Below the pieces are notes generated by a model that worked only from the letters and a program-made list of their open reading frames with translations, did no database searches and had not been told where the DNA came from. The position numbers were made by a program, and so were the translations under genes. A stretch of DNA of 64,000 bases from an uncultured Pseudomonadales bacterium (GTDB lineage: Bacteria > Patescibacteriota > Microgenomatia > UBA1400 > PJMF01), in the NCBI GenBank assembly GCA_964511345.1, contig CAZEEV010000002.1, positions 2,770 through 66,769 on the forward strand, given 5' to 3'. This document shows, piece after piece, positions 10,820 through 45,439 of this stretch (positions within the stretch are counted from its first letter, which is position 1; each line of letters starts with the position of its first letter).

Positions 10820-12979
10820 CTATTCTTTGGGTAACGGCCAAAAGCTGCTCCAACTGTCTATATCTTTGAAATGTTCGTGTATTTTTTCTAGTCTCACCTT
10901 TTCTTCTGGAGTCTTGCCAACAGCAATTACTTCACGCCATAGAGACCAAGCAAAGTTTGGCTGCTTAGCTATTATTTCTTCTGTCAAAACAAAATAATCG
11001 TCTAACTGGTCATTTTTAAATAAATAGGTTAAAGTTTTTCCATAGAGGCCCATGTACTCATAAAAGTATTTATTCATTAATTCCGGATTAAAATCTTTAA
11101 AATACTTAAGAAAAATTGCAACTTGAGACAAATTATTGTCATCCAAAAAAGCTGATCGTCTATCTCCCATGACAAATTTATTAAGAAAAATGGCTTTTTT
11201 ATAATAACTAGCTGCCAATTCTAGATTTTTTTCTGTATAAGCTTGATTAGCAAAATTGAAGAATTGCTGAGACAAATTCCTCTGATCCCAATAATTTAGA
11301 AAGATCCCATTGTTTAAAAAGTTGTATTTAACGAGCACTTCAATATATTTATTTGCAAGAAGATCAGCAGTTCGATAATCATATTGGTCAAATTCCACAT
11401 TATTGATAAAAGAAGATGGATCAAGATCGGCATATTCAATCTGTAAAATTGCTCTTTTGTCAGGGTTTACTGAAGCAATAGAAAAAAATCTAAATAGAAA
11501 CTCAGTATCATATTTATAAAGCGGATATAGAGTCATAAAATTTTCATATGACAATTTTCGATCATTTAAAAGCAAGCGAACTTGGCGATCTGAATATGGC
11601 AAATATTTAACAATCAATCCTGATTTATTAAACCTATAAAGGACCTGCGCAAAGAAGCTATATATAGCAAAAAAAGCGGTAATGATTAGGATAAAGATAT
11701 AGTATTTTTTATAGAACTTTGTTTTCAAATCAACTCTATTATGATGATCTTCTCTTAAAATCATGGCTAAAAATATTAGAGTTAAAGTAAAAATAACAAA
11801 AAAGTTCCAATCAAAATCAAACATAGCATTTAGTAAAGATGCAGAAGCAGCTAACCATAAAAATTTATATAAATGCTCATTATCACTTTTGATGAGTACA
11901 AAGCTTCTATGGAAAATATAGAATACGAAAAAAATAAAAAAACCACCAACTAATATTCCACATTCAGCTAAATTATGTAAAAAGATATTGTGAGCATAAG
12001 AAGTAACTTGCTGATCTTTAATAGGAAATTGACGATTAGCAAAACCAAAATTTTTAAGCCCTACTCCAAAATAAGGATTTTGCTTAAAAATAAGTATAGC
12101 TTTTTTCCAGTATACAAGGCGATAATTCTCCAAAAGTGGTTTGCAAATTTCTTTGTTTGTAAATACGAGAGGACAAAAACTTTCTCCATTCTTATTGAAA
12201 GGTATGGAAAGAAATAAAAACAATATTCCTATTGATAAAAAAGTAAAAATAAATGTTTTACCAATAATTCTAATAAAATTGTTATTTTCTAAAGAAGCAA
12301 AAGCTTTTTTGTTTGTAAAAAAAATTAGAATTAATTGAATTAAAGAAATCAATAAAGCCAATCTCGCTAAACTTAGAATAATTAACAAATATGAAGAAAT
12401 TAATAAAATAATTATTAAAAGATTAGTTTCTTTAGTATTAGTTTTTCTTTCACCTTTAAATAGAAATTGCCACCAAAAAATAGGTATCATTAGCAATAAG
12501 AAGGCAACGTAATGATTATGCCCATAATTTCTTACTAATAAGTTCATGCCTGGAAAAATATCCTGTTGATTTTTATAAAAGGTAAAAAATAAAACAAAGA
12601 TATTAATTATCAGGGTCATAATTGACGAAAAATAAAAAAACAACTTAGGTTCGATGGTATTAGTTTTAGAAGAATTAAAGAACACAAAAATGGCCAAAGA
12701 TACTAAGTAAAAAAGCAATTTTTCAATAGATAGTGGAATTTGCCTTGAAAAGATAATACTCAGAGCAAATAGCACTGATAAAATTAAGGCAAAGACAGAT
12801 GCTTTCGGCATTTTTGGTTCAAAGAAGTTAATCTTATCAGCCAATCTACTAAAAAATAATAAAAAGATGGTCCATAAACTAAATAAATAGAAGCGATACT
12901 CTCCCTCAATTAAAAAAAATGATAAAAGGAAAAGCAGAAAAAAAATGGGATAAAAAAAGTTTCTAAAAAATTTTTCCAT
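10820..12979 (-). CDS. O-antigen ligase/polymerase-like (Wzy_C) membrane protein with large C-terminal non-membrane domain
   Basis: About 12 TM helices and the motif YAHNIFLHNLAECGILVGGFF, typical of the Wzy_C/WaaL family; 719 aa. Confidence 0.55.
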   Translation of the reverse strand: MEKFFRNFFYPIFFLLFLLSFFLIEGEYRFYLFSLWTIFLLFFSRLADKINFFEPKMPKASVFALILSVLFALSIIFSRQIPLSIEKLLFYLVSLAIFVFFNSSKTNTIEPKLFFYFSSIMTLIINIFVLFFTFYKNQQDIFPGMNLLVRNYGHNHYVAFLLLMIPIFWWQFLFKGERKTNTKETNLLIIILLISSYLLIILSLARLALLISLIQLILIFFTNKKAFASLENNNFIRIIGKTFIFTFLSIGILFLFLSIPFNKNGESFCPLVFTNKEICKPLLENYRLVYWKKAILIFKQNPYFGVGLKNFGFANRQFPIKDQQVTSYAHNIFLHNLAECGILVGGFFIFFVFYIFHRSFVLIKSDNEHLYKFLWLAASASLLNAMFDFDWNFFVIFTLTLIFLAMILREDHHNRVDLKTKFYKKYYIFILIITAFFAIYSFFAQVLYRFNKSGLIVKYLPYSDRQVRLLLNDRKLSYENFMTLYPLYKYDTEFLFRFFSIASVNPDKRAILQIEYADLDPSSFINNVEFDQYDYRTADLLANKYIEVLVKYNFLNNGIFLNYWDQRNLSQQFFNFANQAYTEKNLELAASYYKKAIFLNKFVMGDRRSAFLDDNNLSQVAIFLKYFKDFNPELMNKYFYEYMGLYGKTLTYLFKNDQLDDYFVLTEEIIAKQPNFAWSLWREVIAVGKTPEEKVRLEKIHEHFKDIDSWSSFWPLPKE

Positions 12980-13009: not shown

Positions 13010-14335
13010 TCACGATCCAGGGTGAACAACATAAGCTTTATATAATTTTTTAAACTCATTAAATCTACCATATCTAAATTCACACAAATTTTTGAGAAAC
13101 AATAAAGCAAACTTCCTAATAAATTTGCCATCTAATGAATGAAAAGACGAAGAAATACTTCGTATTCTCAAGATTGACGTCTTTGTTATTTCTTTCTCTA
13201 AGAGTTTGTTAATAGGCGAAAAAATGTGTAAATGCTGTTCAGAATTTAGATAAATTGGTCTAATGCCTAATTTCAATAAACGGTTATACTGGGCAAGAAA
13301 TTCAGTCTTGATATCATCAATTTTAATCAAACCTAAATTTAACCTCAACATAAAAAAGAATAAATTATAAAATTTGCCACTCGAATCAACTAAGCTTTTG
13401 ACCTTATCTACATCTGTACAGGGCTTACCTCTTAAAAGATTAAAGTGCATTGAGTAATCAATAGGATTTTGAGCCAATTTTAACTTTTCCAAATCAGACT
13501 GTTTAACTAAATTGGGCATAATAGAAACTACATTTAAAGACATTGAATTTACTTCATCGAGAATTGCCTGATTAACTCTGCTAGAAATTCCAAAGTCATC
13601 AGCATCTATTAGGGAGCAGAAAAAAACACTTCTAAAGAAATATTTAGTTTTAATAATAGAAATTAAATCACTAATAGTTGATTTAATTCTTCTAGTTCCA
13701 AAATACCTTGATTTTCTTAATTCAACTATTTTCTGCGGTAAATCAACAAAAATAGCACCATTTTTAGTTAAACGTAAGATTAGCTCCGTATCAAAAAGCT
13801 CATTTTGAGTTCGACAGCTCTTGGCAATTTCCACTAAGTTTTCAGATTTGCGAAAAGCCTTAATTCCATGAGTATCGGTCCCTGGATAGTTGAGCACTAA
13901 TCTTAAGAAAACATTGAAAAAATAAGTCATCATTCTTCTAAAAAAAGACCTCTGGTCATCGCTACTCGTTAAAGTTTTGGATCCAATTACAACGTCAATT
14001 GTTTTCAACAACTTATTAGCTTTCTCTATAAAATCAAAATCAAAATAATCTACATTTAATACAAAAACATTTTTCCCAACAGCGTTAAGAATGCCCCACC
14101 TAATAGCCATACCATATGATGGACTTGGAAAGTGATGGGCTTTAACAAAAGCATACTTTTTTTCTAATCGTTTAGCTATTAACCAAGAATTATCACTACT
14201 ACCATTTTCTACTAAAATAACTCCAAATTTATTTTGATATTTTTTATTTGCAAAATCGAAAAATTTAGTTAATTGATTTTCTAAAAATAAGGCCTCATTG
14301 TGAATTGGGAAAATGAATGAATAAATTTTTAGCAT
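13010..14335 (-). CDS. bifunctional GT2 glycosyltransferase fused to a YdjC/ChbG-like carbohydrate deacetylase
   Basis: N-terminal YSFIFPIHNEALFLE...VILVENGSSDNS (GT2); C-terminal CSLIDADDFGISSRVNQAILDEV matches the YdjC family N-terminal ADDFG signature. Confidence 0.6.
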   Translation of the reverse strand: MLKIYSFIFPIHNEALFLENQLTKFFDFANKKYQNKFGVILVENGSSDNSWLIAKRLEKKYAFVKAHHFPSPSYGMAIRWGILNAVGKNVFVLNVDYFDFDFIEKANKLLKTIDVVIGSKTLTSSDDQRSFFRRMMTYFFNVFLRLVLNYPGTDTHGIKAFRKSENLVEIAKSCRTQNELFDTELILRLTKNGAIFVDLPQKIVELRKSRYFGTRRIKSTISDLISIIKTKYFFRSVFFCSLIDADDFGISSRVNQAILDEVNSMSLNVVSIMPNLVKQSDLEKLKLAQNPIDYSMHFNLLRGKPCTDVDKVKSLVDSSGKFYNLFFFMLRLNLGLIKIDDIKTEFLAQYNRLLKLGIRPIYLNSEQHLHIFSPINKLLEKEITKTSILRIRSISSSFHSLDGKFIRKFALLFLKNLCEFRYGRFNEFKKLYKAYVVHPGS

Positions 14336-14338
14336 TTT

Positions 14339-15811
14339 TTATTTAAAGTTCAATATATACAAAGATTGATCATTATTCTTATCTACAAATTTTTTATTTG
14401 AGTTAGAATCAGAAAAAATTTGATAATAAACTTGCAAGTCTTCTCTATTCTTGTCTACAGAAGTTTGATTTAGCATGTATATAACTGAACAATCTTTAGT
14501 TTCTTCACGAAGCAAATTGTTGCTGGAATTGTAAATAGGAATAACTTTAACTTTTTGCCCCAAAAAATATCTCAAAGATAAATAATTCCAATATGGCATC
14601 GGGATGATACAACTATTTTTTTCAAAATTATAATTTGCAAAATATGCAACTGGATGATGGCGATAGTCAAAAAGATAATACATATAGTCTGTTTTTTTAT
14701 GGTCGGCAAAATAAATAAAAAATTGACTAATTTGAAACACAATCATTACGTAAACAATTGATTTAATTAACTTTGAATTGAGAGCATAGATATCGGCAAT
14801 GATAATGTAAAAAATAATAGCAAAAGTAATCGAAGTTCTGGCATAAAGAAGACTTCTATCAGTTAAATACACAGCTAAGATAAAAAATAAAAAGAATATT
14901 GCCAAAGAAATAACCACAGACAAAATATATTGATTCTTTTTTTTGTTAGACAACCAAATAATCATAAAAACAAACAATATTAAAAACGGAATAACCAAAA
15001 TGTTGAGTTTATTTAAATCGAAGTATCTTGGAATAATACCAAAAAAATTACCAATCATTTCTAAGGTATTCTGAAAGTTTAATGGTGGTGCCCATTGATT
15101 GACTGCAATACTGTACTCAGCATTTTTAACAAATTTAGGCATAAACCAGCTAATAGACAATAAGAATGTAGCAGATGAAAAAAATGCTGTTTTAAAAGCT
15201 GGCAAACTCCTCTTATATAAAAAATAAGCCAATGGCCAAAGAGGAATTATCCAAACCATGCTGAAATTTGAGAAAAAACCGAGCGAGGCTATTAAACCTA
15301 AAAAAATAGAGGTTTTCATAGAAAAATCATGGTTTTTTTTGATCAAGTAATACCAAAAAAGAGAATAAAAAACAGCTATCCCTAAAACTAAAGAATACAT
15401 CCTATGCTGGAACGTGATATGAACAAAGTAAACATTTGTTAAAAATAGCGTTAAAAAAATGAATAAAAAAGATTTAGGAAGTTTGTTTTTAAAATAAAAA
15501 ATAGAAAAAGATAATAAAACAAAAAGAATAACCACTTGAATTAATCGATAATAGAAGATTCCATGAATAATACCTAAAAAATGTGTCGGAATTTCCATTA
15601 ACATATACCAAAACCCGGGATGACTTATGTCTGGTGAAAAGAAAAAATCACGGAAAGAATAAATATTATTGATATCTATTGATAATATCTCGTCCTCTAT
15701 TGTGTCATGCTCTAAATGAGCAAAATATCTTGGCACAAACAAAAGGACCGCAAACAATGCAAAAAACAGAAATTGTCGGCATCTCTTACTAAACTTCTTT
15801 TTATTGATCAT
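14339..15811 (-). CDS. GT-C fold membrane glycosyltransferase (PMT/ArnT-like, GT39/GT83-type), paralog A
   Basis: About 11 TM helices; acidic DE motif in the first extracytoplasmic loop (HLEHDTIEDEILS); full-length paralog of the split pair at 20762-22194. Confidence 0.5.
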   Translation of the reverse strand: MINKKKFSKRCRQFLFFALFAVLLFVPRYFAHLEHDTIEDEILSIDINNIYSFRDFFFSPDISHPGFWYMLMEIPTHFLGIIHGIFYYRLIQVVILFVLLSFSIFYFKNKLPKSFLFIFLTLFLTNVYFVHITFQHRMYSLVLGIAVFYSLFWYYLIKKNHDFSMKTSIFLGLIASLGFFSNFSMVWIIPLWPLAYFLYKRSLPAFKTAFFSSATFLLSISWFMPKFVKNAEYSIAVNQWAPPLNFQNTLEMIGNFFGIIPRYFDLNKLNILVIPFLILFVFMIIWLSNKKKNQYILSVVISLAIFFLFFILAVYLTDRSLLYARTSITFAIIFYIIIADIYALNSKLIKSIVYVMIVFQISQFFIYFADHKKTDYMYYLFDYRHHPVAYFANYNFEKNSCIIPMPYWNYLSLRYFLGQKVKVIPIYNSSNNLLREETKDCSVIYMLNQTSVDKNREDLQVYYQIFSDSNSNKKFVDKNNDQSLYILNFK

Positions 15812-16790
15812 ATTCGTTGAATAAATTATTTTTTAGGTAATCAAAAATTGTAAGAGCAATTGTATGATGTCCATCTGAATTAGGATGCCCATCAGGCAAA
15901 GTTTGCTTCTTATCAGAGAGATTCGGAACTAAAGAAGCAAATATAGTCATAGGATATCTAGATTTCCACTTATTTAAAATGTCTATCTCTGGAGAACTTA
16001 AATTGTCTTCTTCGTAAGTAAACACTAAAACTGTATTATTACTTGTAAACGCGTAAAAATCATCGAGACTATTGGTAATAATTTTGTCTACTTCCCCTTT
16101 ATACTCATTTTCGATTTGTTGTTGTGCTTTTAGCCAACAGTTAACAACTCCTCTACTACTTGTGTCAGAATTCTGAGCCTGACAATCATCAATTATTGGC
16201 GCCATTAATTCAGACAATCGATTAAATCCAGAGCCACCTTCAAACCAAATAATTAAGTCTGGATTGTATTTCATACCAATATCTTTATATCTTTTAACTA
16301 TGTAAGGAATATCAAAACCAGGCATTCCTAGATTTATGACCTCAAAATGCTTGATGTTAGAAATATTTAGCAAAGAGTTGTTCAGCATGCTCTCTAATTG
16401 CTCTGTCCAATTTTCATTTGTGTTAACAAAATGACCGTATGTAAAAGAATCCCCTAAAGTAACAATACGAAATGTATCTGTTGATTTTTCTAATTCATAA
16501 TCAAAACGATCATGTAAACCATCAACATTGTAGTTATACTTCACTTGATAGCCAAGCCATTTTGGCTCATCTGTAGCAATAATATTCGGTTTTAATTCCC
16601 AATAATGCTTATACTCTGATTCTTTCGGGAAAATTAAATTTTCCTTTTTAATTATTGTGGCCTTATCTGGATCTTGAGTTTTATAAACAATTTTTTTTTG
16701 GTAAAAATTAAAAAGAAAAATAAAACCAATTATCAACTCTATTGCGATTACGGCAATTAAAATAATTTTCTTTTTTTTACTTGAACTCAT
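15801..16790 (-). CDS. SGNH/GDSL-family hydrolase (esterase/acyltransferase-like), membrane-anchored
   Basis: N-terminal TM helix; block I VTLGDSFTYG; later conserved Gly, Asn and DGHH blocks consistent with an SGNH fold. Confidence 0.55.
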   Translation of the reverse strand: MSSSKKKKIILIAVIAIELIIGFIFLFNFYQKKIVYKTQDPDKATIIKKENLIFPKESEYKHYWELKPNIIATDEPKWLGYQVKYNYNVDGLHDRFDYELEKSTDTFRIVTLGDSFTYGHFVNTNENWTEQLESMLNNSLLNISNIKHFEVINLGMPGFDIPYIVKRYKDIGMKYNPDLIIWFEGGSGFNRLSELMAPIIDDCQAQNSDTSSRGVVNCWLKAQQQIENEYKGEVDKIITNSLDDFYAFTSNNTVLVFTYEEDNLSSPEIDILNKWKSRYPMTIFASLVPNLSDKKQTLPDGHPNSDGHHTIALTIFDYLKNNLFNEYDQ

Positions 16791-16809
16791 TTGCGTAAGC
16801 TACATTAAA

Positions 16810-16950
16810 TCAAAAAAGCATATAAATAAAAGCACCAACTGGAGAAACTTGGGCAAAAATAATCAGGGCTCCAAAAACTAAAAAAATCAAAACTGGAGGA
16901 ATCAACCACCACTTTTTATTTTGCCACATAAAATCTAAGATTTCTTTCAT
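16810..16950 (-). CDS. small membrane protein (46 aa), DUF5989-like; absent from the ORF track
   Basis: Manual translation MKEILDFMWQNKKWWLIPPVLIFLVFGALIIFAQVSPVGAFIYMLF. Its ATG overlaps the carbamoyltransferase stop in an ATGA arrangement. As I recall, the pattern (KKWWLIP...aPFIYtLF) matches small proteins that commonly follow carbamoyltransferase genes. Confidence 0.45.
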   Translation of the reverse strand: MKEILDFMWQNKKWWLIPPVLIFLVFGALIIFAQVSPVGAFIYMLF

Positions 16951-18701
16951 TTTGCCTTTCTCATTGTCTTTTTACTCACCACAAACTGATCTATTACTAA
17001 ATAATCTATATCGGTTTTCAACAAACAATCAACAGCCTCATTGGGACGACAAATAATTGGTTCGCCTCTGACATTGAATGATGTATTAATTAAAATTGGC
17101 ACACCAGTTTTTTTGTAATATGCATTTAGCAAATCATAATACATCTTATTATCATTTGGGCGCAAGCTCTCTAAGCGACCGCTACCATCAACATGAACTA
17201 CAGCTGGAACTATTTTTTTCTTGTTCGATAAAAATGGATAAACAGTTAACATCCAACGATTTGATGGTGATTGATCATTTTTAGTTTTTTGACTCATTTT
17301 AAAATAATCAGCAATTTGATCTTCAAAAATTACCGGAGCAAAAGGTCTAAAAAGTTCTCGATTTTTAACTCTGCTATTAATCACTTCTTGCATTTCTTTA
17401 TCAGTAGCTGCCGCTAAAATACTACGATTCCCAAGAGCTCTTGGGCCCCATTCCATACGTCCCTGAAACCAACCAACAATTTTTCGATCAATTAGATAAT
17501 CAGAAATTAAATTCAGTAAACTTTTCTTGGAAATGATTAATTGATAATCTATCAGATTATCTTTTTTATATTTTTTCAAACATTTTTCAATTTGTGACCA
17601 ATTAAACTCAGGGCCAAGATATGGAGAAAAATTATTGCCTAAAGATTTTTTATCCAAACAATCAAATTTATTAGCAAAATACAAAGCAGCGCCCATAGCT
17701 CCGCCGGCATCACTTGGATCTGGTGGAATAAACAATTTTTTAAATGGCGTATTATCCAAAATCTTGCCATTAAGGACTGAATTAAGCGCCACTCCTCCAG
17801 CTAAACAAAGATTAGGATTTTTTTGTTTTTCGTAAACTTTGTTTAACAGGTTAAAAGTTAGCTCTTCTAACTTAAACTGCAGTGTTGCTGCTAAATTTTC
17901 ATGAAATGACTTGATTTCAGACTCCTTAGTTCTTGATTGATTCTCAAAAAGCTCAATAAATTTAGAAGAATACATTCTGTCTCCATAGCCAAAAGAAAAA
18001 TATTCCATGTTTAATGAATAGCTGCCATCTTTGTGAACTCGAACCAGTTTGGTAAATTTATTCAATAATTTTTGATCAACGTGACCGAAAGCCGCTAATC
18101 CCATGACTTTATATTCAGCGTCATTAGCTTCAAAACCTAGATATGTAGTAAAAGTGCTATAAAGAAGCCCAAGTGAATTTGGGAAATTAATTTGCTGATC
18201 AATTTTGATATTTTTGCCAAAACCACGCCCCACCGTTGTCGTAGCCCACTCTCCAACCCCATCTAGAGTAACAATGCTGGCGGAATCAAAGTTTGATAAA
18301 TAATAGCTACTGGCAGCATGAGCGAAATGATGATCAACAAAAAAAACTTTTCCATAATAGTTGAGTTGCTTTTTAATAATTTCACGAAAACGCAAACGAT
18401 GAGTCAACCACTGCCCCATATGTTTAATAAAATTTAGATAACTCTTTGGAAAATACTCTAAATGTTGTGTAAAAATTCTTTCTAATTTAATAATTGGTTT
18501 TTCATAAAAAATCACTGCATCTAGTTCATTTGCAGCAATGGCTGATTGACTCAAACAAAAATCAATTGCCTGAGAAGGAAAAGAATTGTCATGCTTAATT
18601 CTAGAAAATCTTTCTTCTGCTGCCGCAGCAATTATTTTGCCATCAACAATTAAGCAGGCGGCTGCATCATGATAATAACAAGATATACCAAGTATTTTCA
18701 T
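16947..18701 (-). CDS. carbamoyltransferase (NodU/CmcH family)
   Basis: N-terminal MKILGISCYYHDAAACLIVDGKIIAAAAEERFSRIKHD, the hallmark of the NodU/CmcH/HypF-like carbamoyltransferase N-terminal domain; 584 aa with a C-terminal carbamoyltransferase domain. Confidence 0.85.
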   Translation of the reverse strand: MKILGISCYYHDAAACLIVDGKIIAAAAEERFSRIKHDNSFPSQAIDFCLSQSAIAANELDAVIFYEKPIIKLERIFTQHLEYFPKSYLNFIKHMGQWLTHRLRFREIIKKQLNYYGKVFFVDHHFAHAASSYYLSNFDSASIVTLDGVGEWATTTVGRGFGKNIKIDQQINFPNSLGLLYSTFTTYLGFEANDAEYKVMGLAAFGHVDQKLLNKFTKLVRVHKDGSYSLNMEYFSFGYGDRMYSSKFIELFENQSRTKESEIKSFHENLAATLQFKLEELTFNLLNKVYEKQKNPNLCLAGGVALNSVLNGKILDNTPFKKLFIPPDPSDAGGAMGAALYFANKFDCLDKKSLGNNFSPYLGPEFNWSQIEKCLKKYKKDNLIDYQLIISKKSLLNLISDYLIDRKIVGWFQGRMEWGPRALGNRSILAAATDKEMQEVINSRVKNRELFRPFAPVIFEDQIADYFKMSQKTKNDQSPSNRWMLTVYPFLSNKKKIVPAVVHVDGSGRLESLRPNDNKMYYDLLNAYYKKTGVPILINTSFNVRGEPIICRPNEAVDCLLKTDIDYLVIDQFVVSKKTMRKAK

Positions 18702-18898
18702 TAAAACATCTTTTCTAGATTGTCACCTTCTTTAAAGTTTGTATAACTAGTTTTTTTATTATTTTTACTCTTCAATAACAAGAAATCCTTAGCAACAATT
18801 CTAGCAAAAATGGCAGTAAAACCTATACCAATAAAGTAAACAATCGACAATAAAATGAAATTAGAAAGAATTGTAAGCTTTTGTTTAATTATCTTCAT
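18701..18898 (-). CDS. small membrane protein (65 aa) immediately upstream of the carbamoyltransferase (SxtJ-like position)
   Basis: Single TM helix; 1-nt overlap with the carbamoyltransferase start; the positional analogy is an inference. Confidence 0.35.
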   Translation of the reverse strand: MKIIKQKLTILSNFILLSIVYFIGIGFTAIFARIVAKDFLLLKSKNNKKTSYTNFKEGDNLEKMF

Positions 18899-19994
18899 AG
18901 ATTGCCTTTTCTTTAAAAATAAAGTTAAAAAATAGAATATTGCCTACTTTTTCTTGGCCACTAGCACCTAGATGACGGACGCCTATTATCTTTTCTTGTT
19001 TCCAAAAATCAGATTGATCTAACATTTCCAATGAACTCATACTCTCATTTTTATACATAGAAATAAATCTTGAATTATTTTGCAAGATATTAGTCATTTC
19101 ATTTTGAAACCTTAAAAAAGAATCATAAAGAACAAATCCTTGCTGTTCATCTAATTTAGCACAACCATTTGAATCAATGACCTCGCATTCTAATGGAGAC
19201 ATTGTTGTGACTAATTTAAAATTATATTTTTTCTCCAAAACTTTCATTTCATTAAGTAAAAAAGTAATTTTTTTATTATTGAAATCGAGTAATAAGTTCG
19301 GGTCACTTTCAATATGAAACCAATCAACTGAAGCGTCTTTCTTTAACTCACCAAAATAAAGTAAGAAGTCTCCTAAATTAGTATTTTTAACAATCGGCAA
19401 TTTTTGATAAATCCAACCTGACCAGAAATAGAAATTTTTAAAAGATTTTTCCCTATGAAAAGAATCTCCTTCTAAGCTGTAAAGTGGCTTTTCCACATTA
19501 TCAAACAAATCATTCCAATAAAATTGCCATATAACTAATTTTGGTCGTAAAAACTTAACAATATCAGTAAATCTGGCAAATTGTTGATCATTGCCAGTTC
19601 CATTAGTTGCAATTCTAATTAATCTGTAGCAATTGTGATTTTTGACAGAAAGTCTATCTACGAAATGCTCAGCATACGGCTTGCCTTCGTAGTCCCATGG
19701 CGAATCTGTAAATGAATCTCCTAGAACCACTATATTTTCACAGTTACCATAACTTTTATTTACGTAAATAACTTTTGAAGTTGAAAACTTCTCTAAAGGT
19801 TCTTCACATATAGAATCCTTGCAGTAAGATTTACCCCAATAAATATATCTCAAATCAAACTTATCGTTTATAGCAGCTTGCAAAATGAAATTTGGTTTGC
19901 AATCGCTACAAAAACGAGGGATAAAATGATTAATAATAATCATGCTTATCAGCAATGAAAAAATAATCATCAAAATAGCCATTACTCTCTTCAT
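18885..19994 (-). CDS. membrane-anchored SGNH-like domain protein (GDSFT motif), paralog A of the C-terminal half of the 22203 protein
   Basis: N-terminal TM helix; VVLGDSFTDSPWDYEGKPYAEHFVDRL...NDQQFARF...WQFYWNDLFDN aligns with LFLGDSFTNSPWNEYDHSYTEYFVSNL...NDQQFARF...WQFCWNDFYEN of the 22203 protein. Confidence 0.4.
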   Translation of the reverse strand: MKRVMAILMIIFSLLISMIIINHFIPRFCSDCKPNFILQAAINDKFDLRYIYWGKSYCKDSICEEPLEKFSTSKVIYVNKSYGNCENIVVLGDSFTDSPWDYEGKPYAEHFVDRLSVKNHNCYRLIRIATNGTGNDQQFARFTDIVKFLRPKLVIWQFYWNDLFDNVEKPLYSLEGDSFHREKSFKNFYFWSGWIYQKLPIVKNTNLGDFLLYFGELKKDASVDWFHIESDPNLLLDFNNKKITFLLNEMKVLEKKYNFKLVTTMSPLECEVIDSNGCAKLDEQQGFVLYDSFLRFQNEMTNILQNNSRFISMYKNESMSSLEMLDQSDFWKQEKIIGVRHLGASGQEKVGNILFFNFIFKEKAIYEDN

Positions 19995-20087
19995 ACCTCC
20001 TTATGTATACAACCTGACCGTCATATTTTCTAGTGAGAATAAATTAGTATTTAGTCATTTATTTATTGCTTTATAATTAATTAATAT

Positions 20088-20753
20088 ATGCACGAAAAAA
20101 ACAATTTTATAAATAAAATATTCAGCCTTCAGCTCCCGCTAAAAGAACGTATTTTTATTTTTATGCGTTTTATTTCAGCTCCTTTTGTTGAAATAGAAAA
20201 TTTAATACCACAAAAAGCGAACATTTTAGATATTGGTTGCGGTCACGGATTACTGGAACTAGTTTTAAAAAACAAAAATAATCAAAGACTTATAACAGGA
20301 ATTGACCCAGATAAAAATAAAATAAAATTTGCTAAAAAGCTGGAACAAAGTTTAAATTTAAAAAATTTGAACTTTTACAACTGCTCTGTTTTTGATGTAA
20401 AAGAAATTAACAAATTTGACTACGTGATAATTTTTGATGTTGATTATCTTTTAGAAAATGAAGAAAAAACAAAATTTCTAAAAAAAATAAGAAAATTGCT
20501 AAATAAAAATGGAATATTGGTGATAAAAACTGTTATCAAAAAGAAAAGTATTGGATACTATCTTTCATATCTTCAAGAATTATTCACTGTCTATTTATTC
20601 AAAAAGACTTTCACAGGTAGTTCACAATTTCATTTTTTAACAATAGAAGAATATAAAAGAATCTTAAAAAATAATAACTATAAAGTAATTAAAGATGGCA
20701 AATTAAAAACAAAATTTTATCATCCACATTATTATTTTATAGCCAAGAAATAG
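20088..20753 (+). CDS. class I SAM-dependent methyltransferase
   Basis: Motif I ILDIGCGHGLLELVL; acidic residue at the end of beta2 (GIDPD); 221 aa. Confidence 0.75.
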   Translation: MHEKNNFINKIFSLQLPLKERIFIFMRFISAPFVEIENLIPQKANILDIGCGHGLLELVLKNKNNQRLITGIDPDKNKIKFAKKLEQSLNLKNLNFYNCSVFDVKEINKFDYVIIFDVDYLLENEEKTKFLKKIRKLLNKNGILVIKTVIKKKSIGYYLSYLQELFTVYLFKKTFTGSSQFHFLTIEEYKRILKNNNYKVIKDGKLKTKFYHPHYYFIAKK

Positions 20754-20761
20754 TTGCCACT

Positions 20762-21346
20762 TTATTTTTCCTCCAAAAAAAATATTTCTTGATTATAATT
20801 TTTTTCTAAGAGTTTTGGTTGATAACCAGCCTGATTTAATGAATCGTAAAAATATTGGAATCTGTATCTTTCTATTGAAGTTTGATCTAAAACATAAATA
20901 TGATCACAATATTTACTTTTATTTTGAAAATTTTCAAACGAATTGTTGATCATAATTACATTAGTTTTTTTACCTAAAAAATAATTAGCTGACAAATAGT
21001 TCCAATATGGGACAGTTATCAAACAGCTATTATCTAAAAACGCAAAATCATTAAAACTAGCTATCGGATGTTTAACATAGTCAAAACGAGCATAATTTTT
21101 AAATGGCTGATAATCTTGCATAAAATAGATTAAAAATTGGCTTAGCTGGAAAAAAACTAATATAAAAAGCATAATTTTAAAAATAGCTTTCTTTGAATAA
21201 GAAGAAAAAAAATCTGCTAGTAAAATATAAAAAACAACAATGAATGATAAGATTGCTCTAACATAAAAAAGTCTGTTATTGGCAAAGTAATTAACCAATA
21301 AAAAAAACATAAACATAATAAAAACACTCCAAGATATTAATTTCAT
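20762..21346 (-). CDS. GT-C glycosyltransferase paralog B, C-terminal piece (split gene)
   Basis: Aligns to the C-terminal third of the 14339 protein (HPIASFNDFAFLDNSCLITVPYWNYLSANYFLGKK versus HPVAYFANYNFEKNSCIIPMPYWNYLSLRYFLGQK); its start overlaps the stop of the upstream piece (ATGA). Confidence 0.45.
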   Translation of the reverse strand: MKLISWSVFIMFMFFLLVNYFANNRLFYVRAILSFIVVFYILLADFFSSYSKKAIFKIMLFILVFFQLSQFLIYFMQDYQPFKNYARFDYVKHPIASFNDFAFLDNSCLITVPYWNYLSANYFLGKKTNVIMINNSFENFQNKSKYCDHIYVLDQTSIERYRFQYFYDSLNQAGYQPKLLEKNYNQEIFFLEEK

Positions 21347-22194
21347 ATGGAAAAATTTTTTTGTTCAGAAATTATATAAATCATAAAGATTAATAAGGAT
21401 AAATAAGGAAAGACTAAAAAATTCAACTTATTTATGTCTTGAACAGGAATTAATCCAAAAGAATTTAAAAGCAAGCTGATAGTGTTTTTGGCAGTGTGAG
21501 GAAGCAACCATCCATTATCTGATAAAGATTTTTGAATGTTCCCAAAGAAAATTGGGATAAACCAAGCTACACCTAATAAAAAAATAGAAATAAAAAAAAG
21601 AATCTTTTTGAAATCCTTATTTCCTTTCTTGTTAAGTAAATAAATTAATGGCCATAATGGAATTATCCATATCATGCTGTAATCGGTAAAAAAACCTAAT
21701 ATTGCGATAGTCGATAAAAATGTGACATTGCCATAGGATAATTTTCTTTTATTTTTTATTAATTCAAACCAAAATAACGAATAAATAATAGCCACGCCTA
21801 TCAACATAGCAAACATTCTGTACTGGATAGATAGATGTACTAAATATATATTGCTTAAAAATAAAATAAAAAAAGCAAATAAAAATTGGGGTGTGAGCTT
21901 TTTTTTGAAATAAAAAAAAGAAAAAACTAAACAAAAGAATAAAATCAGAACCTGCATTGACCTGTATACAAAAATACTATTATCAAATCCTATTAGCAAA
22001 ATAGGGGCCTTCATAAGAGCGTACCATAGACCAGGATGAACATAATCAGGAGCTTTTAATAACAGATCTTTTAAGTTAACATCTCTAGAAAACATAACTG
22101 ACAAGAACTCATCCTCCATTGGGTCATGCATTCTGATTGCAAAATACTGTGGAATAAAAAAACTGCACAAAAAACAAAACAGATAAAAAAACAA
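21343..22194 (-). CDS. GT-C glycosyltransferase paralog B, N-terminal piece (split gene)
   Basis: Aligns to aa 30-320 of the 14339 protein, including the DE motif (HDPMEDEFLS) and the IWIIPLWPL block. Confidence 0.45.
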   Translation of the reverse strand: MFFYLFCFLCSFFIPQYFAIRMHDPMEDEFLSVMFSRDVNLKDLLLKAPDYVHPGLWYALMKAPILLIGFDNSIFVYRSMQVLILFFCLVFSFFYFKKKLTPQFLFAFFILFLSNIYLVHLSIQYRMFAMLIGVAIIYSLFWFELIKNKRKLSYGNVTFLSTIAILGFFTDYSMIWIIPLWPLIYLLNKKGNKDFKKILFFISIFLLGVAWFIPIFFGNIQKSLSDNGWLLPHTAKNTISLLLNSFGLIPVQDINKLNFLVFPYLSLLIFMIYIISEQKNFSI

Positions 22195-22202
22195 GTTTTT
22201 TT

Positions 22203-24329
22203 CTAGTAATTTTCATGTATCGATTGATTATTAGAAATAAAATTTAAAAATAAAATATTGCCAGCTTTCTCTTGACCACTAGGCTCCAAGTGACGAGTGC
22301 CTATATTTTTTTCTAAAACAGAAAAATCAGATTGATTAAATATTTGCTCTTTTGTTAAGGAATCGCTATCAGACATGGAAACAAATTTAGAATTACGTTT
22401 TAAAATATCCACTAAACTAGTTTGTATTATAAAAGCGTCAGTATTGTCTAATTCATCTAAAATGCCACATCCCTCAGAAAAAACAAGCTCACACTCTAAG
22501 GGAGAAATTGTTGTAGCCAACTTGAAATCATATTTTTTTGCTAAAAATTTCATTCTATCTAAAAAATATATAATTTTGTTCTCGTTAGAATTTATTAATG
22601 AATCCAAATTTCCTTCAACTTCAGACTCATTTATAAAAAAATTATTATTTTTTTCTCCAAAATAAAGTAAAAAATTACCTAAATTAGTATTAACTAAAAA
22701 TGGAAACTTTTGATTGAGCCATCCAGCCCAAAAGTAGGAATTTGCGTAGGATTTTTCTCTGTGAAAGTTGCCATTATTATCTAATTTATATAAAGGTCTA
22801 TCAAAATTTTCATAAAAGTCATTCCAGCAAAATTGCCAAAAAACCATTTTGGGCTTAATAATGTCGATAATGTCTAAAAATCTAGCAAATTGTTGATCAT
22901 TGTTAGTAGCACTAGTAGCTACCCTAACAAGCGAATAACATTTTTGATCTTTAGCTGCAAGATTAGATACAAAATATTCTGTATATGAATGATCATATTC
23001 GTTCCAAGGAGAATTTGTAAAAGAATCTCCTAAAAAAAGTATTTTTTCACAATTACCAAGATCTTCGTTATAAGATACAACTTTATTTGTTGAATACATT
23101 TCAGCAGAATTCTTACAATTAGTTTTACAATAAGAATTCCCCCAAAAAACATATTTTGGATCAAAAACTGCAGAATCAACCAGTATCTGGATAAACTGTG
23201 GTTTGTAATTTTTACAAAGATAAGGAATTAAAAAATTAAGTATAACTAAAGAAAATATTAAAGAGGCGATAAGAGAAGAAATAACTAAAAGAATTCTAAA
23301 AAAATTTATTTTGTTATTTATAGCACTAAACCAAGAAGATTTTGAGCTACCTTTAATTTCTTTTTCAATCCAAAGATAAGTTTCTTTCATGCCTTTTTTC
23401 AAAGAAATACTTGGCTGCCAATTTAAATATTTTTTAATCAAAGTATTATCACTACTTCTGCCACGTACACCTTTTGGGGCATCGGGATTATAGCGATGCT
23501 CCAGTTTTGTCTGAGCTATCCCTTCGATTAAATCTACAAGTTCATTAACAGTAACCAGCTCATTTGTGCCCAAATTAATTGGCTCTTTAATGTCACTGTG
23601 CATGATTAGATCGATACCTTTGACACAGTCATCAATGTACATGAAAGTTCTTGATTGCTTGCCATCTCCCCAAATTTCAATTTCTTTTTGTCCTGAAATT
23701 TTAGCTTCAATTACTTTGCGAATTAAGGCAGCGGGAGCTTTTTCTCTACCACCTTTGTACTCTCCAAATGGACCATAAACATTATGAAAGCGTGCAACTC
23801 TAGTTTCTAAGCCAAAATCCTCCATAAAATGGCGACACAAACGCTCAGAAAAGAGTTTCTCCCAACCATAACCATCTTCTGGCATAGCTGGATAAGCGTC
23901 TTCTTCTTTAAGACCAGCAATTTTAGCATTTGTTTGTTTATTAGCCGCATAAACACAGGCAGACGAAGAATAAAAGAATCTGTTAACCCCAGCTTCTTTA
24001 GAAGCCAGAAGCATGTGAGTATTAATCAAAACATTAAGCATGCATAAAGCTTTGTTGCTTTCTATAAAACCCATGCCACCCATATTTGCGGCCAAATTAT
24101 AAACTTCATCCATGTTTTTGACCGCAGTCTTACAATTTCGCAAATCTTTCAGATCTAAACTCAAATTCTCTACTCCCATGCTCAATTGGTGCCAATCTTT
24201 AAGAGGCTTTATATCTACTGCACGAATTTTTCGATAACCTTGCTTTTGCAAATATTTAATTAAGTGCCCACCTATAAACCCACCAGCACCAGTCACTAAA
24301 ACCTTAATTTCTTTTTTTGATAAACTCAT
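22203..24329 (-). CDS. NAD-dependent sugar epimerase/dehydratase (extended SDR) fused to a TM segment and a C-terminal SGNH-like domain (paralog B)
   Basis: N-terminal Rossmann VLVTGAGGFIGGHLIKYL; catalytic-region SSSACVYA...Y..AK context; mid-protein TM helix; C-terminal half paralogous to the 18885 protein, including LFLGDSFTNSPW. Confidence 0.65.
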   Translation of the reverse strand: MSLSKKEIKVLVTGAGGFIGGHLIKYLQKQGYRKIRAVDIKPLKDWHQLSMGVENLSLDLKDLRNCKTAVKNMDEVYNLAANMGGMGFIESNKALCMLNVLINTHMLLASKEAGVNRFFYSSSACVYAANKQTNAKIAGLKEEDAYPAMPEDGYGWEKLFSERLCRHFMEDFGLETRVARFHNVYGPFGEYKGGREKAPAALIRKVIEAKISGQKEIEIWGDGKQSRTFMYIDDCVKGIDLIMHSDIKEPINLGTNELVTVNELVDLIEGIAQTKLEHRYNPDAPKGVRGRSSDNTLIKKYLNWQPSISLKKGMKETYLWIEKEIKGSSKSSWFSAINNKINFFRILLVISSLIASLIFSLVILNFLIPYLCKNYKPQFIQILVDSAVFDPKYVFWGNSYCKTNCKNSAEMYSTNKVVSYNEDLGNCEKILFLGDSFTNSPWNEYDHSYTEYFVSNLAAKDQKCYSLVRVATSATNNDQQFARFLDIIDIIKPKMVFWQFCWNDFYENFDRPLYKLDNNGNFHREKSYANSYFWAGWLNQKFPFLVNTNLGNFLLYFGEKNNNFFINESEVEGNLDSLINSNENKIIYFLDRMKFLAKKYDFKLATTISPLECELVFSEGCGILDELDNTDAFIIQTSLVDILKRNSKFVSMSDSDSLTKEQIFNQSDFSVLEKNIGTRHLEPSGQEKAGNILFLNFISNNQSIHENY

Positions 24330-25473
24330 AAATTCTTTCTAATTTACTTAGCCAACTATTTTGTATAGCAATTTCTCTTTGTACAGACTGTTTTTTGAAA
24401 CGATGAGATTCCTTTAACAACTGATTTATATTCTTTTGCCACCGTTCTGAGTCAGCTCCCATTTTAACGAAATCACTAAAACGTTCAAGCTCATCAATTT
24501 GTGCACTAACAACAGGTTTACCAGCATAAAAATATTCAAAAACTTTCATCGGATATGAATAACGATTAAAATCAAAGGACGAATCGTAAGGAATCATGCA
24601 TATATCAAACCTATCTAGTATAGAAAGAATTGCCTTCCTCGGTTGTTTCTCATAATAAAAACAATTTTTTTTCTGACATATTTTATTAAAAGAATCTCGA
24701 TAAGAAGGATTTGCTGGTACATTATCTTCATGGTGCCAAGGACCAATAAAAACAAAATTCCATTGTCTATTATTTAGAACTAAATTCTCTATTAATTTGA
24801 AATCCAATCTTTCACTAATTTGGCCAATAAAACCAATAATTGGTTTCCCATCTGGTAAAATGAGAGCTGTTTTTTTATTATTTGCCGAAAAACTATCCAA
24901 ATCAAAACCCTGTGGAACAATTTCTATTTTATTTTTAAGATTGATGTGTTCTCTCTTGATAAACTTCTCGTACTGCTTTAATAAAGTATGGGAAATAACA
25001 AAAATATGATCGGCTTTTGTCAGTAATTTTCTTTTAGCTTTGGTTAAAATAAATTCTGCTTGCTCGTTTTCAGAGGTGTGGAAATCAACAATGTCAAAAA
25101 TAATTTGCCACCATGGCAAACTTAACTGAACAGCGGTAACAAGTTGTGGAAAAAACATCCATAAATAACAATCCTTAAAGTTTCTATGTTTTATTGACAA
25201 ATAAACTTGCAAAGCAGAAAAATAGATTGCTCTATTAAGATCTTTTATAAAAACAAATCTTCTAAAAGGTAAGAAATCAATAGGTTTTAAATAATTAATT
25301 TTTTTCCCAAATATCAATGATCTTAGTACTTGAACTAGAGATTGAGAACTTGAGCAATCGATAATATAGACAAAATTGTTTTTGGCCAAAACTTTTTTTG
25401 TTTGCCATAAGAAATCACAAACTTGATCTTCATTTGATATATTTGGAATAATAATGACCGAGTTTTTAATCAT
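24304..25473 (-). CDS. GT4/GT1-fold glycosyltransferase
   Basis: Two Rossmann-like halves; C-terminal FIGQISERLDFKLIENLV...FVFIGPW...KPVVSAQI, typical GT4 layout. Confidence 0.5.
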   Translation of the reverse strand: MIKNSVIIIPNISNEDQVCDFLWQTKKVLAKNNFVYIIDCSSSQSLVQVLRSLIFGKKINYLKPIDFLPFRRFVFIKDLNRAIYFSALQVYLSIKHRNFKDCYLWMFFPQLVTAVQLSLPWWQIIFDIVDFHTSENEQAEFILTKAKRKLLTKADHIFVISHTLLKQYEKFIKREHINLKNKIEIVPQGFDLDSFSANNKKTALILPDGKPIIGFIGQISERLDFKLIENLVLNNRQWNFVFIGPWHHEDNVPANPSYRDSFNKICQKKNCFYYEKQPRKAILSILDRFDICMIPYDSSFDFNRYSYPMKVFEYFYAGKPVVSAQIDELERFSDFVKMGADSERWQKNINQLLKESHRFKKQSVQREIAIQNSWLSKLERIYEFIKKRN

Positions 25474-25499: not shown

Positions 25500-26390
25500 A
25501 TGAAAACTGAAATATCTATTGCCATTATTACCAAAAATAGAAAAAAAGAGCTAGAAAATTGTTTAGATAGTATCGTCAAACAAACCTTAATCCCTAAAGT
25601 TATTATTATCGATAATGATGAAAAACTTTCTGCTAAACATATTATTAATAACAAAAAATATAAACAAATAAAAATTAATTACTATTATTCCAAAGGAAGT
25701 GTCCCTAAATGCAGAAACTTCGCTGTAAGAATGGCTAAAAACAAATATTTAGGCTTTGTGGATGATGATTGTATATTAGATAAAAAGTGGACAGAGAATG
25801 GTCTTAAATCAATCAAAAAAAATAAAACGGCTTATGTTTTGGGCAAAACACTACTCCTAAATCCACACAATATCTTTGCTTTGGCTCAATATTCTAGAGA
25901 TGATTATTGGAAAAATTATAACTCCCAAATTTTTGACACTAAGAATGCTATCTTAAATCTCGATGTAATTAAAAAATCTAAGTTGCAATTTGATGAAAAA
26001 TGTCAAAAAGAATTTTATGATAGCGCAGATTTTGATTTTGATTTTGCACTTAAAAAAGCTGGGCTTAAAGGATATTTTTGCAAAAGAATGACTTTACTAC
26101 ATAAAGAAACTACTAATTTCGATCGTTTTAAAAAAAGAGCCTACTGCCGAGGATATTTAGCCAAATATTTGGACAGAAAATGGAAATTAAATGATAAGCT
26201 AGTTGATTTAAGAAACAGATATTTTTATTTTTGGTTATTAAAGGCGATCAAAGATTCTTTTAAAGACTTTAAAAGATATAGTAAGCATATGGAATCGCCA
26301 CTTTATAAAAAAATATTAGCAACCTTTGTAATTAAGCTGTTTGAGCGTTACTATGTCACTGGATATGTTTCAAATCAAGAAAATAGGTAA
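25500..26390 (+). CDS. GT2 family glycosyltransferase
   Basis: ISIAIITKNRKKELENCLDSIVKQT plus DxD (FVDDDC). Confidence 0.65.
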   Translation: MKTEISIAIITKNRKKELENCLDSIVKQTLIPKVIIIDNDEKLSAKHIINNKKYKQIKINYYYSKGSVPKCRNFAVRMAKNKYLGFVDDDCILDKKWTENGLKSIKKNKTAYVLGKTLLLNPHNIFALAQYSRDDYWKNYNSQIFDTKNAILNLDVIKKSKLQFDEKCQKEFYDSADFDFDFALKKAGLKGYFCKRMTLLHKETTNFDRFKKRAYCRGYLAKYLDRKWKLNDKLVDLRNRYFYFWLLKAIKDSFKDFKRYSKHMESPLYKKILATFVIKLFERYYVTGYVSNQENR

Positions 26391-45303: not shown

Positions 45304-45377
45304 GAAGATAAATGCGTGTGTAGCTCAATTGGTTAGAGCTCCAAGCTTATACCTTGGCGGTTCTAGGTTCGAGTCCT
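45304..45377 (+). tRNA. tRNA-Ile, anticodon UAU (decodes AUA)
   Basis: Hand-folded cloverleaf: acceptor GCGTGTG/CACACGC, D-arm GCTC-AATTGGTTA-GAGC, anticodon stem CCAAG/CTTGG with loop CTTATAC, T-arm CTAGG-TTCGAGT-CCTAG, discriminator A; no encoded CCA. Confidence 0.8.
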
Positions 45378-45439
45378 AGCACACGCACAGAACCCTCTTA
45401 AAAAATTTTTTATCCTCTCAAACATGTTAGAATAAATAT

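Follow-up and report, generated by a model that had tools for sequence, protein, structure and literature searches.

The structurally closest described relatives of the membrane proteins treated here are ArnT (GT83; PDB 5ezm, 5f15) and STT3/PglB (GT66), glycosyltransferases of the GT-C fold. Enzymes of GT-C class A share a conserved N-terminal module of seven helices; their first external loop is made of two helices, the first of which carries the catalytic base, and a variable C-terminal module touches the acceptor (PMC13503287). Two paralogous genes for proteins with a predicted GT-C fold, here called GT-C A and GT-C B, lie in a stretch of 64,000 nucleotides (positions 2,770 to 66,769 of contig CAZEEV010000002.1, assembly GCA_964511345.1; from here on the window), within a conserved locus for cell-surface glycans in a bacterium of the Woesebacteria type (Patescibacteria). 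GT-C A is intact and GT-C B is divided into two open reading frames (ORFs) by a one-base change of frame in a short homopolymer run. We lean towards the view that this paralogue is dispensable and that the split represents a recent loss-of-function or OFF allele.

The lipid-linked donor of ArnT is prepared in the steps catalyzed by ArnC (GT2) and ArnD (a deacylase), and Gtr-type glycan modification systems consist of a polyprenyl-phosphate GT2 enzyme, a flippase and a GT-C transferase. Homopolymer phase-variable alleles of glycosyltransferases that build surface glycans are known from Campylobacter, Haemophilus, Helicobacter and Neisseria.

GT-C A (14339-15811, minus strand; 490 residues) is predicted to span the membrane with 11 transmembrane (TM) helices and ends in an alpha/beta domain of about 100 residues. 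Its AlphaFold2 model, built on 27 sequences, has a pLDDT (predicted local distance difference test) of 87.9 and a pTM (predicted TM-score) of 0.89. When the model was compared with the PDB by Foldseek, the top 22 matches were all GT-C-fold membrane proteins (STT3, PglB, ArnT, AftA/B/D, Pmt4, ALG9 and the GPI transamidase subunit PIGU), and Emb was also among the matches. The best matches, for most of which the probability was 1.00, had TM-scores of 0.39-0.54 (ArnT 0.52-0.54; STT3 with an E-value of 2e-5) at sequence identities of 9-13%. After TM1 the model shows helices 39-50 and 67-79, and at the start of this first external-loop helix stand D40 and E41, which are kept in at least 90% of the family (EDE in GT-C B). 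The model thus places the 490-residue family in GT-C class A at the level of the fold, and it is at this level that AlphaFold2 and Foldseek bear out the initial annotation, which had called the two protein families of the region GT-C and SGNH.

With ArnT and STT3/PglB the family has in common the polytopic fold, the conserved N-terminal module, the two first-external-loop helices, the first with conserved acidic residues, and a variable C-terminal module of about four TM helices plus an external domain. It differs from them in that no sequence similarity is detectable, that its approximately 30 detectable members all come from Woesebacteria or other Patescibacteria, and that one member is split into two ORFs. 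The proteins of the family have no Pfam or NCBIfam match; at relaxed Pfam thresholds PMT_2 was touched by one of 18 members (E 0.005) and EpsG by three of the 18, and a hidden Markov model of the family found no match among the PDB sequences. The literature on GT-C enzymes in Patescibacteria yielded nothing relevant. From the fold and the gene context, the GT-C enzymes probably transfer a sugar from a polyprenyl-phosphate carrier onto a surface polymer outside the membrane.

GT-C B consists of an N-terminal piece of 283 residues (21343-22194, minus strand), which comprises TM1-TM8 with the conserved module, the EDE motif and the long external loop, and a C-terminal piece of 194 residues (20762-21346, minus strand) with three hydrophobic segments (TM9-11) and the external, soluble alpha/beta domain at its C-terminus. 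It begins with a TTG start, the Lys-rich tail at the N-terminus being absent; in a public annotation of the same sequence (P0019, 262 residues) an internal ATG serves as start of the N-terminal piece, which would remove TM1. In BLASTP comparisons GT-C A is 46% identical to the 283-residue piece over 280 residues (E 3e-75) and 39% identical to the 194-residue piece over 191 residues (E 4e-41). The other pair of paralogues in the region, SGNH-like A (369 residues) and residues 347-707 of a 708-residue epimerase fusion, shares 48% over 366 residues (E 2e-121). The initial annotation had put these identities at 40-50% by eye, and the formal alignments agree with this estimate and show a similarity far above chance. 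An ORF table reproduced all of its ORF coordinates exactly and confirmed both the split and the fused state of the B copies.

The junction can be read directly in the sequence (21343-21367, minus strand). On the minus strand it runs GAA CAA AAA AAT TTT TCC ATA TGA, with a run of seven A (21362-21356) followed by a run of five T (21355-21351); the ATG of the downstream ORF (21346-21344) overlaps the TGA of the upstream ORF (21345-21343). The downstream ORF lies in the -1 frame relative to the upstream frame. Since the downstream frame carries a TGA of its own at 21367-21365, seven codons ahead of the ATG, the shift has to occur within about 22 nucleotides, and these contain the A7T5 run. One extra A or T within A7T5 (21362-21351) yields a single ORF of 477 codons without stops, and the protein so repaired is collinear with GT-C A and with the whole family, no residue being lost or gained. 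The stop/start overlap ATGA and the absence of lost residues relative to GT-C A, both pointed out in the initial annotation, are thus seen in the sequence and in the alignment, and its suggestion that the split could be a frameshift now takes the form of a one-base frame change in a homopolymer.

In the model of GT-C A the break maps to a loop of four residues, KKKN (290-293), between the hydrophobic helices 273-289 and 294-316 (TM8 and TM9). By the positive-inside rule this loop is predicted to be cytoplasmic, the other Lys/Arg-rich loops alternating with it. Nowhere does the family alignment vary more than in the region of the break, and the A-run is there because a KKKN-type loop is encoded by Lys codons. 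All 25 other family members compared are unsplit, single proteins of 472-491 residues. In this lineage GT-C B has lost one base relative to an in-frame A8T5 or A7T6; the loss falls in the codons of the Lys-rich cytoplasmic loop between TM8 and TM9 and has given two ORFs with the ATGA overlap. We propose that GT-C B, a paralogue which related genomes do without, would now be off or inactive. That it is dispensable is suggested by the loci of several relatives, which show a single GT-C gene of the family within the DNA fetched (L004/L005, L006, L007 and L012-L014).

A break in a homopolymer is found at the classic site of indel errors, and the support obtained so far consists of contigs. It might therefore be asked whether GT-C B is a normal single gene that was broken by sequencing or assembly. 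The same A7T5 junction is, however, present in Logan contigs from two sequencing runs, which makes an assembly error unlikely: a 26-kb contig of run SRR8925774 (L001), which encodes the 194-residue piece, is 100% identical to the window over 14,015 nucleotides, and a 3.2-kb contig of run SRR8925805 (L017) covers positions 23631-21050 (2,582 nucleotides) at 100% and spans both the A7T5 junction and the fusion point of the epimerase and the SGNH-like domain. No intact GT-C B of 477 residues was found in a collection of 5.8 billion proteins that includes both runs.

Long A/T runs are everywhere in the window: 164 have seven or more bases, where about 43 are expected from the composition, an approximately fourfold excess. 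Among the 96 A-runs of at least seven bases in the 64 kb is the A7 of the junction. GT-C B has 15 A/T runs of this length, intact GT-C A has eight and an intact Wzy gene has ten. Elsewhere the window is densely filled with long ORFs, and when ten short ORFs in adjacent positions were checked against Pfam, no other gene cut in two came to light, which speaks against systematic homopolymer errors in the assembly. A consensus-level error at the junction, which the initial annotation had named as the observation that would overturn the split, is thus contradicted at the assembly level; contig-level evidence makes it unlikely and, at the same level, shows the frameshift to be present in the DNA of the population. 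That GT-C B is a normal single gene we regard as very improbable. A close relative suited to dating or confirming the frameshift was found neither when GTDB representative genomes were searched with the repaired GT-C B nor when the metagenomes of the Joint Genome Institute (JGI) were searched with the protein and with an exact DNA pattern allowing 10-14 nucleotides at the run; at 90% identity both pieces of GT-C B, the epimerase fusion and GT-C A are all singletons.

If the frameshift is real, a full-length protein might still be made by recoding, either by -1 ribosomal frameshifting on A_AAA_AAT or by slippage of RNA polymerase on the A7 or T5 run. In the upstream frame the sequence CA[A AAA AAT] forms a heptamer of the type X_XXY_YYZ, the downstream ORF is in the required -1 frame, and the run lies within the permitted shift window of only about 22 nucleotides. 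Against recoding, no stimulatory RNA structure was found downstream (136 nucleotides folded, z -0.10) and no Shine-Dalgarno-like or purine-rich stimulator upstream; the arrangement is absent in relatives, all 25 homologues being encoded in one frame, and with A/T runs of seven or more bases everywhere in the 64 kb the motif is expected from composition. Efficient transcriptional slippage, moreover, usually needs runs of about nine or more. We therefore consider recoding quite improbable.

The age of the split was approached via conserved columns and relative rates, tests that were used in place of the recommended dN/dS because the nearest orthologue is 53% identical, so that synonymous sites are saturated, and because the two samples are identical. 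Of 93 columns whose conservation among the 25 unsplit members reaches 88% or more (67 in the N-terminal and 26 in the C-terminal part), GT-C B deviates at eight and one, respectively; its unsplit orthologue P0020 deviates at the same numbers, eight and one, and P0021 at ten and four. Tajima relative-rate tests against P0020 with outgroups from the B clade gave no excess of changes in either half (p 0.14-1.0). With GT-C A as outgroup the C-terminal half gave p 0.04, the excess changes being in P0020 and not in GT-C B. The ratio of C-terminal to N-terminal identity is 0.83 for GT-C B and 0.69-0.90 for pairs of unsplit proteins. One substitution stands out: at codon 28 of the 283-residue ORF (22110-22112, minus strand), at the outer end of TM1, GT-C B alone among 26 members carries Gln in the PRYF motif, where all others have Arg. 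Taken from the alignment, this single unique lesion may be a hint of erosion. Since the split copy shows no decay in sequence, the frameshift is recent, or both pieces are still under selection.

The second of these options is that of a functional two-piece enzyme, in which TM1-8 with the conserved catalytic module and the acceptor-side TM9-11 with the external domain would be made by translational coupling and assembled in the membrane. Both ORFs are intact, their conserved residues are kept as well as in P0020, and no acceleration of rate was seen. The break lies in a four-residue Lys-rich loop between strongly hydrophobic helices, so that each piece would have an end on the cytoplasmic side and could insert alone. 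Overlaps of the ATGA type also occur at other same-strand junctions of the window, e.g. 4037/4040, 38926/38929, 40176/40179 and 16947/16950, and the absence of a Shine-Dalgarno motif is the norm here.

How often a split as clean as this one arises by accident was estimated in a simulation that placed 278 one-base indels in the A/T runs of nine genes of the family. A downstream start with at most three residues lost was obtained in 52%, the same with at most ten out-of-frame codons on the N-terminal piece in 29%, and the exact overlap of stop and start by four nucleotides in 8%. A clean ATGA split is thus often a chance outcome in AT-rich genes and no evidence of design. Equally clean splits in 8-29% of the simulated indels, at what is a mutational hot spot, also speak against a two-piece enzyme, as do the occurrence of the split in only one of 26 family members, the start Met of the C-terminal piece, which is not conserved in the family, and the lost invariant Arg of PRYF. 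No natural split GT-C turned up in the literature, in which no search was aimed at split enzymes, and to our knowledge no other naturally split glycosyltransferase of GT-C class A has been described. A working two-piece enzyme is a possibility that we take seriously and nevertheless consider unlikely.

Several points weigh against reading the split as a recent OFF or loss-of-function allele. Both ORFs are intact, and an inactive allele and a working two-piece enzyme fit the same data. The absence of decay has likewise two explanations, recent origin or selection on both pieces. By the model, the break falls in a cytoplasmic loop that is short and variable, and a split at such a place should be tolerated. 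Overlaps of four nucleotides are a normal gene junction in this genome, most genes of which are without a Shine-Dalgarno motif, and to judge from the sequence the C-terminal piece could be translated. The two sequencing runs come from one project and may sample one population, and the evidence being contigs, minority A8 alleles may be compatible with it. Finally, the donor and acceptor substrates proposed for the GT-C pair are derived from the fold and the neighbouring genes.

An OFF allele invites comparison with the phase-variable alleles mentioned at the beginning. As in those, a one-base frame change in a mononucleotide run affects a surface-glycan transferase gene and an intact paralogue is left. 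The A7T5 run differs from theirs in being short and no longer than 163 other runs of the window, and it showed no variation in length between the two sequencing runs. Judged as a phase-variable locus, the tract is therefore neither unusually long nor variable, since it is identical in both runs.

The initial annotation had interpreted the two GT-C genes and the two SGNH-like genes as the result of one tandem duplication of a module, after which one copy underwent fusion and the other fission. In both copies the SGNH-like gene is followed by the GT-C gene in the same order and on the same strand; the divergence of the pairs is similar (48% identity for the SGNH-like proteins, 39-46% for GT-C), and the copies have co-linear nucleotide matches at 66-68%. 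In a nucleotide alignment these matches are confined to coding sequence; at so low an identity, neither a recent duplication nor gene conversion would account for the two copies. The protein identities and the trees agree with the initial annotation in that the duplications are old and both pairs true paralogues.

A comparison with orthologous loci in relatives, which had been recommended, has now been made: synteny was compared across ten loci, nine related loci were mapped for SGNH-like genes, and the GT-C tree was calculated by neighbour joining with bootstrap. It gave separate histories for the two pairs. In the GT-C tree GT-C B groups with P0020 and P0021 (bootstrap 100), and GT-C A with P0002 and P0003 (bootstrap 100) and then P0005 (87). 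In the Woesebacteria genome GCA_017999345.1 the B-side P0020 and the A-side paralogue P0004 are adjacent (KA111_02110 and KA111_02115) directly behind a standalone epimerase of 330 residues; in locus L002 an epimerase gene, a B-like and an A-like GT-C gene are arranged in the same way. By this tree and gene order, the lineages of GT-C A and GT-C B parted before the genome described here diverged from GCA_017999345.1. Neither an SGNH-like gene nor a carbamoyltransferase was found in the DNA fetched for L002 and for the GCA_017999345.1 locus (L003), up to 10 kb on either side.

Each of the nine related loci has at most one SGNH-like gene, and this gene is tied to a carbamoyltransferase cassette (see below) and not to GT-C; L004, L006, L007, L009 and L012 have at most one GT-C gene of the family in the fetched DNA. 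In the SGNH-like tree copy A shares a clade with orthologues of eight further genomes, copy B branches outside this clade (bootstrap 91), and GT-C B has clear orthologues elsewhere, so that the gene trees do not mirror each other. Since the GT-C pair occurs side by side without an SGNH-like gene, since the trees are not mirrored and since relatives have no more than one SGNH-like gene, the two duplications are separate events. Trees and synteny thus indicate an old GT-C duplication apart from the SGNH-like one, against the tandem duplication of a common module, which has become improbable. For SGNH-like B three origins are conceivable: it could be an old paralogue that other genomes have lost, it could have been acquired from a relative, or it could be a copy that evolves fast.

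SGNH-like A (18885-19994, minus strand; 369 residues, LGDSFT motif) has an N-terminal TM anchor followed by a predicted extracytoplasmic SGNH-fold domain. Its AlphaFold2 model (pLDDT 87.9) gave 44 PDB matches in Foldseek at E-values of at most 1e-3, nearly all of them GDSL/SGNH esterases or proteins of the same fold (E 8e-6 to 1e-3, TM-score 0.6-0.68 on the target), and the model accordingly assigns the SGNH alpha/beta/alpha fold to the 369-residue family. G92-D93-S94 (GDS), N161/D162 and H341 are invariant in 22 sequences including the fused copy B; the GDS serine would correspond to block I, the Asn to block III and the His to block V. The Asp of block V is absent, since GxRH stands in place of DxxH with no Asp at position -3, and scores with Lipase_GDSL_2 are 19.4-22.7 bits, below the gathering threshold of 32.9. 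In the fold, the GDS serine, the Asn-Asp, the His and the N-terminal anchor the proteins resemble SGNH/GDSL carbohydrate esterases (Axe2, CE3, EstL5) and the extracytoplasmic SGNH domains of enzymes for the O-acyl modification of glycans. They are unlike them in having GxRH for DxxH, a large insertion, conserved cysteines and Pfam scores below threshold, and in that one copy in the window is fused to a cytoplasmic epimerase, an arrangement not found elsewhere among 1.84 billion representative proteins. In SGNH-like domain B, which forms the C-terminal half of this fusion (22203-23219, minus strand), the 25 residues that are invariant in the family are all present, among them the serine of GDS and the histidine of RHL. 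Both copies are predicted to be membrane-anchored SGNH-fold esterase or acyl-transfer domains.

SGNH-like A is the first gene of a cassette, in which it is followed by a TM ORF of 65 residues (18701-18898), a carbamoyltransferase of the NodU/CmcH type (16947-18701) and a DUF5989 ORF of 46 residues (16810-16950), all on the minus strand. The order SGNH-like gene, TM ORF of about 65 residues, carbamoyltransferase, DUF5989 recurs in L004, L006, L007, L009 and L012; each of these five relatives has one SGNH-like gene, which is always followed by a 63-70-residue ORF and the carbamoyltransferase, and also by DUF5989 wherever the contig reaches that far. This suggests a dedicated unit for glycan carbamoylation or acyl modification with uncharacterised small membrane partners. 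Nothing relevant turned up in the literature on a pairing of DUF5989 with a carbamoyltransferase.

In the 708-residue fusion protein (22203-24329, minus strand) the NAD-dependent sugar epimerase/dehydratase domain occupies residues 1 to about 326 (23352-24329, minus strand; Pfam PF01370, E 3e-45) and is 70-80% identical to the standalone epimerases of relatives, which have 327-330 residues. Five of these standalone enzymes end 6-9 residues past the motif WIEKEM, and in L004 the SGNH-like gene follows the epimerase gene with an overlap of 8 nucleotides. In the window, at the place where the relatives have a stop codon, the frame continues through an in-frame linker of about 15 residues into the TM anchor of SGNH-like B (FFRILLVISSLIASLIFSLVILNFLIPYL; linker and anchor at 23220-23351, minus strand). 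The stop codon between the epimerase gene and the second SGNH-like gene is thus missing and one protein results, for which a cytoplasmic epimerase, a TM helix and an external SGNH domain would be a workable topology.

A HMMER scan of the 1.84 billion representatives found no protein that matches both halves, the best matches being separate proteins (epimerase 498 bits, SGNH-like 382 bits), and all 21 SGNH-like homologues are standalone, which shows the fusion to be unique to this lineage. Other long epimerase fusions that were examined, among them P0052, P0132 and P0063, have different C-terminal domains (NodZ, FkbM, an intein or an unknown one), and P0052 as a possible counterpart has no similarity to the SGNH-like family.

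Further genes belong to the same locus. Next to the fusion lies a GT1 gene (24304-25473, minus strand). Between GT-C B and SGNH-like A a class I S-adenosylmethionine (SAM) methyltransferase, assigned at the level of Pfam, is encoded on the opposite strand (20088-20753, plus strand). Between the DUF5989 ORF and GT-C A a third, classical SGNH/GDSL protein of 329 residues (15801-16790, minus strand), with the motifs GDSFTYG and DGHPN, has marginal similarity to the SGNH-like family. GT-C A is adjoined by a GT2::YdjC fusion protein of 441 residues (13010-14335, minus strand) that is kept in relatives: it is found beside a GT-C paralogue in the window, L002, L004/L005, L006 and L013, with 57-80% identity in L002, L004, L006 and L013, and nearby on the opposite strand in L003. 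A GT2::YdjC protein beside a GT-C enzyme recalls the logic that leads from ArnC and ArnD to ArnT, its NCBIfam matches being weak (ArnC, E 5.7e-4; chitin disaccharide deacetylase, E 2e-17).

As in Gtr systems, GT2 and GT-C genes here share a surface-polysaccharide locus with Wzy-like proteins and the number of GT-C paralogues varies between genomes; unlike in Gtr systems, no GtrA-like flippase was identified and the GT2 enzyme carries a YdjC deacetylase-like domain as a fusion partner. Two Wzy_C proteins, similar to O-antigen polymerases/ligases, are encoded at 10820-12979 (minus strand; 719 residues) and at 26341-27927 (plus strand). The 719-residue protein has a C-terminal extension of about 350 residues without a Pfam match, and similar versions of 725-771 residues are present in L003 and L006. 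In L003 the GT-C pair is directly followed, on the other strand, by the gene for a 478-residue protein without a Pfam match (12952-14388 of L003, minus strand), for which tblastn detected no relation to the GT-C family. Across the ORFs of the window a Shine-Dalgarno motif within 20 nucleotides of the start is almost absent. A single tRNA gene occurs in the 64 kb, for a tRNA-Ile with the anticodon TAT (45314-45388, plus strand); such a tRNA is an uncommon bacterial route to the reading of AUA.

New for annotation are the small GT-C family, confined to Patescibacteria and without a Pfam or NCBIfam model, and the conserved cassette of an SGNH-like gene, an ORF of about 65 residues, a carbamoyltransferase and DUF5989 in surface-glycan loci. 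The fusion and the fission are a lost stop codon and a homopolymer frameshift, ordinary drift of gene structure and no special system. Should the split enzyme work, nature would have provided a test of how modular the GT-C fold is, with the two modules as independently folding, working subunits. Should GT-C B be an OFF allele, as we are inclined to believe, homopolymer-rich reduced genomes would vary their surface glycans through the loss of paralogues.

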